Below, piece after piece: positions 1,259 through 44,168 of a DNA stretch of 64,000 nucleotides (its first letter is position 1; each line of letters opens with the position of its first letter). The DNA comes from Syntrophomonadaceae bacterium (lineage in GTDB: Bacteria; Bacillota; Dethiobacteria; DTU022; UBA8154). A program made the translations under genes and the position numbers. Location of the stretch: the NCBI GenBank assembly GCA_003556225.1, contig PWRN01000063.1:4060-68059 (forward strand). The letters run 5' to 3'. The notes below the pieces were generated by a model that was not told where the DNA came from, ran no database searches, and was given only the letters and a program-made list of their open reading frames with translations.

Positions 1259-1825
1259 TTAACCGGCCAACAAGTTCAAGGGCTTATCGAATTCGATCCC
1301 GTAGCTGTAAACTTTTTCTTTCGAACTAACGTGTTCCCGGATCACCCTGCCGCTCACCCCGGTCGTCAAGAGGTCGCCCTTGCCCGTAAAAATATCAAAA
1401 AAGAGCAAGAGGTCGCTAAGCAGGTTCAAAGGTTCCTGGACGGAGAGCAAGGCCCCACCCCGGGAGATATCCATCACCATCCCCGGTCGATATTCCAGCT
1501 CTTCCTCCAGGATCAGGTATTGAGCCTGCAGGCGGGCGGGGATCCGCTGTGACTGCCGGCGCTGCAGGCGGTGAGGTTCACCCATGAACTCCAGAATAAC
1601 GTTTTTTTCCGGATCCAAGTTTAATACCCGGGCATCAATAATATACAGGGCATCTTGCTGCTGCACCATATCCAACTTCAGCCACTCACCACTTTCCAGG
1701 GAGGGGGAACCTTCCAGGGAGAGGGTCAGTCTTTGCCCCTCTACCGCTTTGATGGTACCGGAGAGGTATATTTCCTTTTCCTTGTGCCGCAAGTTAACCC
1801 GCTGTCCAGGCTTTAGCAATAACAT
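1259..1825 (-). CDS. PilZ-domain c-di-GMP-binding protein (YcgR-like N-terminal domain + PilZ)
   Basis: 188 aa; RRQSQRIP (RxxxR) and DISRGGALL (DxSxGG) PilZ signature motifs; ATG with GAGAGGTGA SD. Confidence 0.75.
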   Translation of the reverse strand: MLLLKPGQRVNLRHKEKEIYLSGTIKAVEGQRLTLSLEGSPSLESGEWLKLDMVQQQDALYIIDARVLNLDPEKNVILEFMGEPHRLQRRQSQRIPARLQAQYLILEEELEYRPGMVMDISRGGALLSVQEPLNLLSDLLLFFDIFTGKGDLLTTGVSGRVIREHVSSKEKVYSYGIEFDKPLNLLAG

Positions 1826-3163: not shown

Positions 3164-3424
3164 TTATTCCCCCCGCTCTTCCTGGAAATATGGATTTGCG
3201 ACTTGCGCCCCACAGTTGGCGCAGTCAATTACCTTTTTTTCCCTGGATTCGTTGGAACTATAAAACTTGCGGCCGCAGGAGGGGCACAGCCATTCACTGA
3301 CCATTCGCGCACATCCTTTCATAGAAAATAAATGCTCTTCCCATGGACGGACTTCTTTTCTGTGATTATAATATAACTCTCTACCGGCGGCATCAGCTTT
3401 TATAGGTAGTCGCTGGTCTACCAA
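3164..3424 (-). CDS. small zinc-ribbon protein (CPSCG...CANCG), 86 aa with TTG start; may start internally at MVSEW
   Basis: Two CxxC pairs; own promoter and terminator; TTG 3424 preceded by GGTGA. Confidence 0.5.
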   Translation of the reverse strand: MVDQRLPIKADAAGRELYYNHRKEVRPWEEHLFSMKGCARMVSEWLCPSCGRKFYSSNESREKKVIDCANCGAQVANPYFQEERGE

Positions 3425-3453
3425 TTTCTCTTTTCACCTAATACCAAAGGGTT

Positions 3454-3481
3454 ATATTAAAAAAGCTTTCCTGGTAATCAA
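3454..3481 (-). promoter_or_regulatory. sigma-A-type promoter (TTGATT-16-TAATAT) for the zinc-ribbon gene
   Basis: hexamers read on minus strand; TSS about 20 nt upstream of TTG start. Confidence 0.4.
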
Positions 3482-3503
3482 GCTTGCTCAGGAATGAAGT
3501 CTT

Positions 3504-3682
3504 TTCCCTGCTTGCCCTCGACTCACTGGATTTGCGCCAAATTTTTTTCGGTGCTCGGGGTTTCTGGCCGCCTCAAAAACTCCCTCGCTGCGCTCGCTCA
3601 AACAGTTTGAGGCGGCTTTGCTGAAACCCCTGCGCGCCTTCTCATCAAGGCAAATCTATGTTCGCCGGGGGCAAGCAGGGAA
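3504..3682. repeat. ~180-nt nested inverted-repeat / structured element (outer 14-bp perfect IR, inner 11-bp perfect IR, additional 7-bp pairing)
   Basis: TTCCCTGCTTGCCC (3504-3517) vs GGGCAAGCAGGGAA (3669-3682); GCCGCCTCAAA (3568-3578) vs TTTGAGGCGGC (3606-3616); GATTTGC (3529-3535) vs GCAAATC (3650-3656); CTCGCT direct repeat in central loop. Confidence 0.6.
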
Positions 3683-3756
3683 GCAGTAGTGATGTCTGAC
3701 TAAAGTTAATAGCCATAAAAGTTTATTTCACTGCCCGGTTGGAATGGGTGCAAACT

Positions 3757-4233
3757 TTACCATCCATGGGTGCCGGGGCCGCCCTTAAAGGGACCGCTGA
3801 TCCAGGAGGTCACCCAACCCCCGTAGAAATCACCTGCCTGGGGGTCAACTTTTTCACCGTCCACGTAGCAGGCATCTACTTTCCCGGCAAAAAACGCCAG
3901 GTGACCGGTGATGGCTTCAAAACCGGGCCGAGGATTCTCGTAGCACCAGGCAAGATCGGGCAAACGCTTTCCGTTGATACTGAGCCCCCAGTACTTGGCT
4001 TCTCCCTTAAACTCGCAGTAGCTTTTATTGCCGGTGGAATAGAGCCTTTCCATGAGGATGTCGGCCTGGGGAATGTAGTATGCCGGCGGGTGGCTGGTTT
4101 CCAGCACCCGCAGGGTTCGGGAGCTTTCCGCCACCCTGAGTCCCTCGTGCTCCACCTGAATGAGGCCGTCAAAGAATTCCACCCTGGGCGGCCGGGGATA
4201 ATCCCAGACCGATTCGGTCGTTCTCTTTTCCAT
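3757..4233 (-). CDS. DUF427 family protein
   Basis: 158 aa; SVWDYPRPP...RVLETSHPPAYYIP..DI......YCEFKGEAKYW pattern typical of DUF427; GGAGGTG SD. Confidence 0.7.
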   Translation of the reverse strand: MEKRTTESVWDYPRPPRVEFFDGLIQVEHEGLRVAESSRTLRVLETSHPPAYYIPQADILMERLYSTGNKSYCEFKGEAKYWGLSINGKRLPDLAWCYENPRPGFEAITGHLAFFAGKVDACYVDGEKVDPQAGDFYGGWVTSWISGPFKGGPGTHGW

Positions 4234-7031: not shown

Positions 7032-7472
7032 GTGTCCGAAACGAAAAGAGCCGAGCTGATGCGGGAATTTGTGGAATCTTTCGCAGCGCAAGATATCGAG
7101 AAATCGGTATCGCTCTGCACCGAAGATGTTGTATGGGAAACGCCGATGGGAATCTTTAAAGGAAAAGAAGAGGTCAAACGCTACCTGAAGTGGAACGCCG
7201 AACGCAACAAAGAGGTGAAGATTGCAGAAGCAGGGGTCGGAATCCTGGTGCAAGGAGACAAAGCTTCTTTCGAGCACCAGATCACCGGGTTAATCGACGG
7301 TGAAAAAGTGTCGTTTTTGGCCATGTGTACTTACGAATTCAGCGAAGATCAGATCAAGACCATGAGAACGGTATTCGACAGGTTGGCCCTCGCCGAGCAA
7401 GCATCCAACAAATGGCTGCCGAAAAAGCTCGTCAACACGATCGTCAGCCAGATGCATAAAGGGTTGGACTAG
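7032..7472 (+). CDS. SnoaL-like / NTF2-fold (ketosteroid-isomerase-like) protein
   Basis: GTG 7032 with GAAGGAGGT SD (track start TTG 6990 has no SD); ~146 aa; fold assignment by weak resemblance only. Confidence 0.5.
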   Translation: MSETKRAELMREFVESFAAQDIEKSVSLCTEDVVWETPMGIFKGKEEVKRYLKWNAERNKEVKIAEAGVGILVQGDKASFEHQITGLIDGEKVSFLAMCTYEFSEDQIKTMRTVFDRLALAEQASNKWLPKKLVNTIVSQMHKGLD

Positions 7473-7592: not shown

Positions 7593-7668
7593 TGGTGGGC
7601 GGAGCCGGGCTCGAACCGACGACCCCCTGCTTGTAAGGCAGGTGCTCTCCCAGCTGAGCTATCCACCC
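7593..7668 (-). tRNA. tRNA-Val (anticodon TAC), CCA encoded
   Basis: manual cloverleaf: GGGTGGA acceptor, GCTC/GAGC D-stem, CCTGC-CTTACAA-GCAGG anticodon arm, GTCGG-TTCGAGC-CCGGC T-arm. Confidence 0.9.
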
Positions 7669-7672
7669 GTAT

Positions 7673-7748
7673 TGGTGACCCCTAGGGGATTCGAACCCCT
7701 GCTGCCAGCTTGAAAGGCTGGTGTCCTAACCGATTAGACGAAGGGGCC
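7673..7748 (-). tRNA. tRNA-Glu (anticodon TTC), CCA encoded
   Basis: manual cloverleaf: GGCCCCT acceptor, CCAGC-CTTTCAA-GCTGG anticodon arm, GGGGT-TCGAATC-CCCTA T-arm. Confidence 0.9.
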
Positions 7749-7772
7749 AGATGTTTGGCCTGTCTGTCCGTT

Positions 7773-7848
7773 TGGTGGGCCCACTAGGACTCGAACCTAG
7801 AACCAACCGGTTATGAGCCGGTAGCTCTGCCAATTGAGCTATGGGCCC
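7773..7848 (-). tRNA. tRNA-Met (anticodon CAT), elongator type (or tRNA-Ile2 lysidine); not initiator (no 3 GC pairs in anticodon stem)
   Basis: GGGCCCA acceptor, ACCGG-CTCATAA-CCGGT anticodon arm, CTAGG-TTCGAGT-CCTAG T-arm, CCA encoded. Confidence 0.85.
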
Positions 7849-7856
7849 AGATAAAA

Positions 7857-7931
7857 TGGCTCCCCAGGCAGGATTCGAACCTGCAACCTACCGGTTAACA
7901 GCCGGTCGCTCTACCGTTGAGCTACTGAGGA
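7857..7931 (-). tRNA. tRNA-Asn (anticodon GTT), CCA encoded
   Basis: TCCTCAGTAGCTCAACGGTAGAGC 5' half typical of bacterial tRNA-Asn; ACCGG-CTGTTAA-CCGGT anticodon arm. Confidence 0.9.
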
Positions 7932-42267: not shown

Positions 42268-44070
42268 TCACTGCTCCCCGTCCAGCTGCAGTACGGCCAT
42301 AAACGCTTCCTGGGGGATGGTCACCCGCCCCACCAGCTTCATGCGCTTCTTCCCCGCTTTTTGCTTCTCTAAAAGCTTGCGCTTCCGGGTTACATCTCCA
42401 CCGTAGAGGTTTTCCACCACGTTTTTCCTGAGGGCCTTGATGGTCTCCCGGGCAACGGGGCGGCTGCCGATCACGGCCTGGATGGCGATGTCGAACATGT
42501 GGCGCTGGATCACCTCTTTGAGGCGTTGGATTACCTCTCGCCCCCGGTAATAGGCCTTCTCGCGGTGAGCAATAAACGAAAGTGCGTCCACCGGTTCATT
42601 GTTCACGTGAATATCGACCTTGACCAGGTCTGACTCCCGGTATCCCTTGTGCTGGTAATCGAAGGACGCATAACCCCGGGTGCGGGATTTCAGCTGGTCA
42701 TAGAAATCGTAGATAATCTCCCCCAGGGGCAGGGCATAAACCAGCAAAACGCGATCCGTGTTGAGGTACTGCATGTCCCTGTACTCCCCCCGTTTTTGCT
42801 GACAGAGCTCCATCACGGGCCCGATATAGTGTTGGGGCACCATAAAGGTTCCCTCGATAAAGGGTTCCTCTATACGCTCAATGGCGCCAGCAAGAGGAAA
42901 GTTGGCGGGATTTTCGATGTGTTTTTTTTCGCCCTGGCGCGTTACCACCTGGTAAATCACGTTGGGAGCCGTGGTGATTAGTTCCAGGTCGTATTCCCTT
43001 TCCAGCCGCTCTTTGACGATTTCCATGTGCAAAAGGCCCAAAAACCCACAACGGAAACCAAATCCCAGGGCGGAAGAATTTTCCATTTCGAAAAACAAGG
43101 AAGCATCATTAAGCTGAAGCTTTTCCAACCCTTCCCGCAGGTCCACGTAGCGGTCATTGTCCACGGGATAAAGACCACAAAATACCACGGGATTCATGGG
43201 GTGATATCCCGGCAAAGCTGCTTGTGCCGGATTCCGGGTGGACGTGATGGTATCACCCACGCGGGAATCCTGGACGCGCTTGACCCCGGCAACCACGTAA
43301 CCTACCTGGCCGGCGAAAAGGCTTGCTTCAGGTGTCATGGCCGGGCGAAAGACGCCAACCTCCGAGACCTCAAATTGCTTGCCGCTGTGCATCATGCTGA
43401 TTTCCATGCCCCGGGAAACTTGCCCTTCGCGAAGGCGAACGTACGTGATCACACCCCTATACAGGTCGTAATGGGAATCGAAGATCAGGCCCCGCAGCGG
43501 CGCCTGCTCATCTCCCGAGGGTGCGGGGATGCGGTGAATGATCGCTCCCAGCACCTGGTCGATGTTCAATTTTTCCTTGGCGGAAATCATTAAGGCCTCC
43601 CGGCCGTCGATCCCTAACAGGTTTTCCAGGTCAGCCTTGACCTTTTCCGGGTCTGCATTGGGAAGGTCGATCTTGTTGATCACCGGGATGATCTCCAGGT
43701 TGTGCTCCAGGGCCAGGTATACATTGGCCAGGGTTTGGGCTTCGATGCCCTGGGCTGCATCCACCACCAGCAGAGCCCCTTCACAGGCAGCCATGCTCCG
43801 GGAAACCTCGTAGGTAAAGTCCACGTGTCCTGGGGTATCAATCAGGTTCAGCATATAGCGTCGGCCGCCACTTTCGTAAAACAGGCGCACAGCCTGCATC
43901 TTGATCGTGATCCCCCGCTCCCTTTCCAGGTCCATGGAATCCAGGTACTGCTCCTTCATCTCCCGCTGGCTGATGGAATGGGTGCTTTCCAGGATCCGGT
44001 CAGCCAGGGTAGATTTGCCGTGATCGATATGGGCAATGATGGAAAAGTTGCGGATGTCGCTTTGCTTCAA
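42268..44070 (-). CDS. lepA: elongation factor 4 (LepA)
   Basis: 600 aa; [10 protein letters not shown]1, DTPGH G3, NKID G4, LepA C-terminal domain; TTG start with GGAGAGGAG SD. Confidence 0.9.
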
Positions 44071-44139
44071 AAGGAAATCTCCTCTCCAGTTTCAGGGAAA
44101 TAAAGGTTTATGCCCGGGCAAGCTGGATCATTAATAAAA

Positions 44140-44168
44140 ATTATATCACCTGGCCCCAGGAGTGACAA
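44140..44168 (-). promoter_or_regulatory. sigma-A promoter upstream of lepA (TTGTCA-17-TATAAT)
   Basis: hexamers read on minus strand, ~63-nt leader. Confidence 0.5.

Follow-up and report, generated by a model that had tools for sequence, protein, structure and literature searches.

The hairpin that lies between a DUF427 gene and a zinc-ribbon gene in the window, the 64,000-nt stretch of Syntrophomonadaceae DNA analysed here, is best read as an ordinary kind of small mobile element and not as a gene-specific RNA regulator. We put the probability at roughly 0.8 that it is a copy of a MITE-like repeat, small, non-autonomous, mobile and palindromic over nearly all of its ~255 nt. The repeat family is found in uncultured haloalkaliphilic, Dethiobacter-related Syntrophomonadaceae of soda-lake sediments. 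It is dispersed in multiple copies, arrived by insertion, ends in imperfect terminal inverted repeats (TIRs), has no coding capacity and decays by palindrome-centred loss. The element is not a REP sequence, given its size, nor a terminator, nor a member of an Rfam family, and it is not demonstrably an inverton.

Results

The conserved core is a single long hairpin

All of the pairings that the first-pass annotation had described at positions 3504–3682 were recovered. The inverted-repeat search returned outer arms at 3504–3520 and 3666–3682 that are complementary over 17 nt at 94%, 14 of them perfect, in agreement with the earlier description of a 14-bp perfect inverted repeat extendable to 17 bp with one G-U. 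The same search found the perfect pairings of 7 nt (3529–3535 / 3650–3656) and 11 nt (3567–3577 / 3606–3616), and the CTCGCT direct repeat could be seen in the sequence of the apical loop (3578–3605). A perfect 8-nt pair beyond those already described, GGGGTTTC / GAAACCCC, is present at 3557–3564 / 3623–3630. These pairings are all nested, and each strand forms one long imperfect hairpin. When both strands were folded, as the annotation had proposed, the core reached −88.9 kcal/mol on the plus strand (z = −6.0) and −91.1 kcal/mol on the minus strand (z = −7.2), far beyond shuffled sequence (0/200 shuffles as good in either case). Since every pairing is present and no shuffle matches the fold of either strand, the hairpin is real and not a product of chance.

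The repeat unit extends beyond the core

The size of ~180 nt first given to the element holds for this conserved core but not for the whole unit, since outer arms of ~35 nt on each side bring it to ~255 nt. Between copies aligned with wide flanks, similarity extends ~35 nt past 3504 and 3682 and then stops abruptly. The whole unit, TGG...CCA, occupies 3467–3721 on the minus strand, which is the forward direction of the family. Its termini were set by alignment of 11 copies, and an nhmmer profile built from the repeat copies matched 3469–3720 (E = 1e-84).

In the family direction, the minus-strand unit begins with the left outer arm at 3683–3721 (TGGCTATTAAC...), an imperfect terminal inverted repeat and the least conserved part (paralogue identity 0.59; orthologue divergence 5–18%). 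The core at 3504–3682 follows, delimited by inverted repeats and folds and bounded by the 14–17-bp inverted repeat TTCCCTGCTTGCCC / GGGCAAGCAGGGAA, and the unit closes with the right outer arm at 3467–3503 (...CCTGAGCAAGCTTGATTACCA), which was defined from copy alignments and diverges by 2–6% between orthologues. The 130-nt centre of the core (GATTTGCC...GCAAATCC) has a paralogue identity of 0.89. At its tip, the asymmetric apical loop (3578–3605, minus strand) carries GCGAG/CTCGCT repeats and is near-invariant over the copies (alignment A5, columns 154–184). A large internal loop or "bubble", with one side at 3536–3556 and the other at 3631–3649 (minus strand; alignment A5, columns 111–121 and 211–225), is by contrast the most variable part of the core, and its two sides split the copies into subfamily A (window copy, L013, L021 and L022) and subfamily B (L011, L014, L016 and L020).

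The ends of the copies read TGGYNATSAAGYTT...CAGG and its complement, so that the repeat ends constitute imperfect TIRs; the terminus consensus is TGGYNATSAAG... / ...CTTSATNRCCA, and 70–80% of outer-arm cells are paired in a pair count across copies. A short family variant is present at 7078–7250 of L021, in which a left-end-like segment, CCTGGAGAGCTCAAGTGCCCAGG...TTCCCTGCTTG...GGATTTG, is followed ~110 nt on by a second, directly repeated end-like segment, CCTGGTGAGCTCACGTGCCCGGGG.

The sole open reading frame of at least 40 aa within the unit is a 46-aa TTG ORF on the plus strand. No ORF conserved across copies was seen on reading alignment A5, and neither the frame nor the start of the 46-aa ORF is kept. 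A small peptide or type I toxin was considered because short ORFs start in some of the arms; it was rejected because their starts and frames are not kept across the copies in A5.

The arrangement of one copy bears on whether the 14–17-bp inverted repeats might be recombinase sites that flip the ~145-nt segment between them, as in an inverton. The L013 core is inverted with respect to its outer arms, the switch lying inside the 12–14-bp inverted repeat, which indicates that a single inversion of the centre took place. Yet the L013 arrangement is fixed in the sister lineage L034, and a single orientation is seen in all window-locus assemblies (L001–L004, L024 and L025) and in L020 and L023. The segment is moreover itself palindromic, so that a flip changes little, no recombinase gene lies beside any copy, and template switching at the palindrome accounts for one event. 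We therefore regard an inverton as very improbable.

The element belongs to a dispersed repeat family

To count copies, one genome per GTDB species was scanned with the pattern CCCTGCTTGCC-N138-168-GGCAAGCAGGG. Ten loci were returned, six of them on six separate contigs of the MAG Syntrophomonadaceae CSSed11_70, and these six copies align with the window element over its entire length. The four others, which belong to unrelated phyla (Solirubrobacteraceae, Desulfovibrio, Isosphaeraceae and an actinomycete), have only the search pattern in common with it and were discarded as chance matches. Three further soda-lake loci came from JGI metagenome contigs scanned with a core pattern. The genome-wide search for the arms that had been proposed at the outset thus revealed a repeat family, represented in MAGs and metagenome contigs of related soda-lake Syntrophomonadaceae by eight independent loci, full or near-full, and by decayed fragments. 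The nhmmer profile scores the copies at E = 1e-63 to 1e-95 and detects the fragments too. Searches of viral, plasmid and phage collections gave no match, save one chance match in a GC-rich coding region.

Within the 64-kb window, no second full copy of the arm sequences (14-mer and 11-mer) was found, only chance-level near-matches to them. The profile detected two remnants on the plus strand. One is a decayed fragment upstream of msrB, at 2139–2231, which corresponds to the right half of a second copy (E = 0.07; E = 0.004 at the orthologous place in L024) and is ~73% identical to the right half of L011 by hand count from the alignment. The other, at 44086–44148, lies upstream of lepA (42268–44070, minus strand; assigned via Pfam) and represents the solo right end (~45 nt) of a third copy, with E = 9e-5 to 4e-4 and ~82% identity to the right arm of L014, again by hand count.

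The exact DUF427 protein is encoded on metagenome contigs from soda-lake sediments of the Kulunda steppe (the longest being 461 kb), with gene order conserved throughout, and the element is essentially identical among those strains. Such MAGs have been described as abundant, uncultured and Dethiobacter-related (Vavourakis et al. 2018, PMC6146748). Several short Logan contigs stop exactly at the palindrome centre, including all of the DUF427-bearing ones (L005, L007, L008 and L009), which is the assembler behaviour expected at a hairpin repeat.

Copies adjoin unrelated genes

In the window, the element is flanked by, and does not overlap, the DUF427 gene (3757–4233, minus strand; Pfam PF04248, E = 4e-31) and the zinc-ribbon gene (3164–3304, minus strand; 46 aa as called). 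It begins ~35 nt past the DUF427 stop codon, and the zinc-ribbon gene follows ~160 nt downstream of it. The latter is defined by gene calls in L001–L004 and L025, with an ATG at 3304 preceded by AAAGGA; it had no match in a Pfam search, and in L024 the protein is 52 aa long. An 86-aa TTG ORF (3164–3424, minus strand) had formerly been taken as the zinc-ribbon gene, and the gene callers give a shorter protein. The non-coding spacer therefore measures ~450 nt and not 330 nt. Just upstream of the zinc-ribbon start, the stretch 3326–3400 is the most divergent part of the locus, with 17–18 differences per 50 nt between sister lineages, and it adjoins an unusually conserved tract at 3400–3700.

Apart from the DUF427 and zinc-ribbon pair, the genes beside the copies encode an OYE flavin oxidoreductase, an M23 peptidase and WalR, ComM, an FtsX-type permease and an HlyD adaptor, an OTCase and a nitroreductase, a PHP-domain protein and a hydrolase. 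Some copies follow a stop codon, others occupy the promoter region between divergent genes, and one (FtsX–HlyD) separates two cistrons of an operon. Since they adjoin unrelated housekeeping genes in such varied positions, a gene-specific cis-regulator or operator is ruled out.

Relatives show empty sites and palindrome-centred decay

Two loci could be followed into relatives of increasing distance. The FtsX–HlyD spacer measures 316 nt in L016, where it holds the full element; 151 nt in L029–L031 (HlyD 90% identical), where the outer arms alone are left; and 40–41 nt in L032 and L033 (HlyD 68% identical), where no trace of the element is seen. In the M23–WalR spacer, the element is present in L013 and in its 92% relative L034, and is absent in L035 (87%, collinear on both sides) and in L036–L038. 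Because the more distant relatives show empty sites at both loci, the repeat came by insertion. Together with the copy number and the unrelated neighbours, these empty sites support the REP/MITE-like repeat family that had been among the original candidates.

Comparison between loci indicates that the insertions happened at different times. In the L035/L027 lineage, both contigs of which come from sample SRR20069370, the M23 copy is absent and the DUF427 copy is present. The DUF427 copy is also found in lineages whose DUF427 proteins are 91% and 82% identical. The window copy is thus old and, being common to lineages with DUF427 only 82–91% identical, is now probably immobile.

Several copies have been eroded. 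The L027 copy, of the 82% lineage, lacks its central 78 nt, and its left arm shows uncompensated drift. In the alignments, a GC...GC repeat marks the loss of the core in L029–L031 and a CGAGG repeat that of the right half in L029, and part of the left arm is missing from L022. Copies decay via microhomology deletions centred on the palindrome, and centre-directed deletions of this kind are typical of long DNA palindromes.

Probable flanking duplications and a proposed route of mobilisation

MITEs are defined by TIRs round a core, flanking target duplications and the lack of a transposase gene; most are shorter than 200 bp, with lengths up to ~400 bp, and they fold into long stem-loops (Delihas 2011, PMC3184786). 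The repeat agrees with this description in its size, its lack of a transposase gene, its copy number, its TIRs, its stem-loop and its insertion polymorphism. It is an odd MITE in that its centre is best conserved (0.89) and its terminal arms are worst conserved (0.59–0.65).

Compared in direct orientation, the two flanks of one copy are more alike than flanks taken from different copies. Agreement is best for an 8-bp register beginning 2 nt outside TGG/CCA, with 39/64 matches, a level reached by 21/5000 mismatched pairings, although AT-rich flanks may inflate this statistic. Individual copies differ in what they retain: L021 has a perfect 8/8 duplication, GTTTTTTT, on both sides; L013 has AATGAA on each side, and the empty L035 site has one related copy; L016 is possibly flanked by TAAGA. 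The signal is degenerate, with a register that varies between copies; no single exact duplication common to all copies was found, by eye or by statistics. A target duplication of ~8 bp is likely on the evidence of these flanks. A further identity of 14 nt, AAACGAGAGAATAA, was noted between the right flank of L011 (~700–715) and the left flank of L016 (~3940–3953), where it forms the end of the FtsX ORF; by our own rough estimate (~3e-4), it is unlikely to be due to chance.

We propose that a DDE-type transposase supplied in trans would have recognised the TGG...CCA ends and moved the repeat, producing a target duplication of ~8 bp in AT-rich intergenic DNA. In ~260 kb of relevant genomes inspected, we found neither an autonomous element with matching ends nor a solo end adjoining a transposase gene.

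A route other than a DDE transposase would be movement as single-stranded DNA by an HUH enzyme (RAYT or TnpA), the element then being of REP/BIME type or derived from IS200/IS605. That the entire element is a hairpin, that its centre is more conserved than its ends and that its target duplication is not clean would all fit such an origin. HUH transposition, however, is not known to yield a flanking direct repeat, and the flanks carry a direct-repeat signal; the ends, in addition, are inverted repeats. The unit of ~255 nt also contrasts with REPs, which are 20–40 nt long (PMC3733652). Finally, no RAYT or TnpA gene was noticed in the copy loci examined. Taken together, an HUH origin appears improbable, and the MITE-like repeat moved by a DDE-type transposase remains the preferred reading.

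RNA, promoter and terminator readings of the hairpin

A structured sRNA and a riboregulator had been among the original candidates, and several observations speak against either as the primary explanation. When the whole window was searched with Rfam 15 (including 6S RNA, riboswitches and sRNAs), nothing reached the gathering threshold in the element region, and at E <= 10 over 3300–3800 only two chance-level matches of 14–15 bits appeared; the comparison with covariance models therefore matched the element to no family at either level. Eight copies, scanned on either strand for the sigma-70 consensus, yielded no promoter whose position was consistent between copies. The two strands differ little in how well they fold, covariation is weak (see below), and the centre has been deleted in sister lineages.

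The right arm of the window copy offers TTGATT-N16-TAATAT facing the zinc-ribbon gene, which matches at 8/12 positions and lies below the scan threshold. It appears to be a weak promoter-like match and not a feature of the family; the right end of the element would in this way put a −35-like TTGATT upstream of the zinc-ribbon gene.

Integron attC sites, retron msd, 6S RNA and IS110 bridge RNA were also considered and rejected. There is no array, no adjacent reverse transcriptase or recombinase gene and no Rfam match to 6S RNA, and the internal loops, compared by eye with the flanks, did not match them consistently.

No terminator-like site was called at the element. A T6 run lies ~10 nt past its right end, but this is ~50 nt from the base of the stable stem, and most copies are without it; the outer arms of the window copy, in addition, pair poorly. 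The original judgement that the structure is too elaborate for a simple terminator was borne out by this distance, by the lack of a called site and by the multi-copy nature of the element. The position directly past the DUF427 stop codon, together with the T6 run, could still suggest a fortuitous palindrome confined to a single locus or the remnant of an intrinsic terminator. The census, with multiple copies in unrelated contexts, refutes this, as do fold z-scores of −6 to −7 and the distance and scarcity of the T-run, leaving it a negligible probability.

Transcription continuing past the end of DUF427 would leave the mRNA with a 3′ hairpin of high stability (~−90 kcal/mol) that lacks an adjacent U-tract. 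Such a hairpin would act as an exonuclease barrier or a processing site, not as a terminator; REP, ERIC and Correia elements (PMC3184786) provide the analogy for this predicted effect on mRNA decay or processing.

The core diverges slowly between orthologous loci

Among seven independent copies, mean pairwise identity is 0.59–0.65 in the outer arms, 0.89 in the 130-nt centre, 0.66 in the short segments inside the 12-bp inverted repeats and 0.31–0.37 in the flanking DNA. The way in which copies were found accounts for part of the conservation at the 12-bp inverted repeats, but not for that of the remaining centre. Between orthologous loci, the core differs at 3/179 positions (window against L024 or L025) and 3/176 positions (L020 against L023), or 1.7%. 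Third codon positions of the flanking genes diverge by 12–23% (14.7% in the Fisher comparison) and other spacers by 8–28%, and the difference between core and third positions holds for paired columns (Fisher p = 3e-11) as well as unpaired ones (p = 2e-4). Intact cores thus diverge 5–10 times more slowly than third codon positions. Gene conversion between paralogues was rejected as the cause, since paralogues differ by 11% and orthologues by 1.7%, and locus-specific variants are kept.

Slow divergence of this kind is unlike that of a purely selfish, decaying insert, and some copies may have been co-opted as RNA or DNA structures. The core hairpin could, accordingly, be a functional module that is maintained by the host and spread by riding on the mobile repeat, a view compatible with a MITE origin. 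It might act as a structured RNA, serving a downstream gene in the same orientation as a stabiliser, a processing site or a 5′-UTR element, or it might work at the DNA level, as a structure or a site of protein binding. Besides the low core divergence, a hand count from alignment A9 gives ~9% divergence between L013 and L034 in the element against ~25% in the upstream spacer, and in alignment A8 a truncated half copy has drifted by ~9%, also by hand count. The apical loop stays near-invariant while the internal-loop sequences vary, and the core is co-oriented with the genes at all three of the three loci that lie between co-directional genes.

Other observations weigh against such a module. 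In sliding windows, the tract of low divergence also spans 65–150 nt of the downstream flank, so that the constraint may be regional, acting on the sequence upstream of the next gene and not on the element. The core has been deleted in sister lineages with no obvious harm, and neither an Rfam match nor a promoter or terminator signature was found.

RNAalifold predicted 58 pairs with a covariation term of ~0. On a full-length structure derived from L014, 89.9% of cells pair, with many single-sided breaks among paralogues. As to the compensatory changes that had been sought in relatives, pairs with double changes numbered 9 against 5.9 in shuffles, and covariation was weak (score 0.078 against 0.065, a value reached by 2/500 shuffles). 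Transitions that keep a G-U pair among paralogues numbered ~11 on the forward strand and ~6 on the reverse, and this strand bias was not significant. The forward strand folds better than the reverse in 10/11 copies, a point in favour of a functional RNA; this advantage is not independent evidence, since it derives largely from shared ancestral G-U pairs. On balance, we consider a host-maintained module unlikely. It is still less likely that the 180-nt core is a functional RNA or DNA hairpin under purifying selection at many intergenic sites, seeded by the mobile repeat and given locus-specific properties by its variable internal loop.

Discussion

Relation to known repeat families

Like the bacterial MITEs, among them Correia/NEMIS of Neisseria, RUP of S. 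pneumoniae, Nezha, Chunjie and bcr1, the element is small, non-coding, intergenic and present in multiple copies, and it shares with them TIRs, a flanking direct-repeat signal, insertion polymorphism and a long stem-loop (PMC3184786). It differs from them in that no sequence similarity was found in the plasmid, phage, viral and Rfam libraries searched, in that its centre and not its TIRs is best conserved, and in its host, an uncultured soda-lake member of the Syntrophomonadaceae.

ERIC sequences have a conserved central inverted repeat, and their copies are old and for the most part immobile, with stronger conservation than the sequence around them. The element shares with them a conserved palindromic centre and copies of considerable age. 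The ERIC/IRU sequences of Enterobacteriaceae are also imperfect palindromes, but at ~127 bp they are half the length of the element, occur in a different phylum and have no sequence in common with it. They occupy intergenic, co-transcribed positions, and an effect of theirs on mRNA decay is reported by Delihas 2011 (PMC3184786).

REP/BIME sequences are extragenic palindromic repeats at the 3′ ends of genes and between operon cistrons, as the FtsX–HlyD copy is, and their likely protection of mRNA 3′ ends is similar to the effect predicted for the element. REPs are 20–40 nt long, carry a GTAG/CGTC head and occur in association with RAYT genes (PMC3733652), whereas the element is ~255 nt long, with TIRs and a target-duplication signal.

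Other features of the window and of related contigs

A c-di-GMP-II riboswitch (RF03169; 46.5 bits against a gathering score of 40) was detected at 1895–1980 on the minus strand, directly upstream of a PilZ-domain ORF (1259–1825, minus strand). Judged from this arrangement, a c-di-GMP-sensing RNA may control a c-di-GMP-binding PilZ protein. A cluster of four tRNA genes lies at 7596–7931 on the minus strand.

On the L013 contig, the spacer upstream of walR/walK (~3770–3900) is strongly conserved, and the same block occurs in L035, L036 and L038. It contains TGTAAT-N5-TGTAAT, which we take to be a WalR-box-like direct repeat, followed by TTGACC...TATACA and then by a GC hairpin with T8. The spacer may represent an autoregulated leader or give rise to a small transcript.

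Implications

Recognition of the palindromic element adds an uncharacterised repeat family to an abundant uncultured lineage of soda lakes, and it keeps the hairpin from being annotated as a riboregulator acting on the DUF427 or zinc-ribbon gene. A recurrent breakpoint in short-read assemblies of these soda-lake genomes is explained as well. Since its insertions and deletions can be ordered on a tree, the family is useful as a marker of strains and lineages. If the slow divergence of the core holds, the family would provide a tractable case of mobile palindromes that have been co-opted as mRNA or DNA structures.
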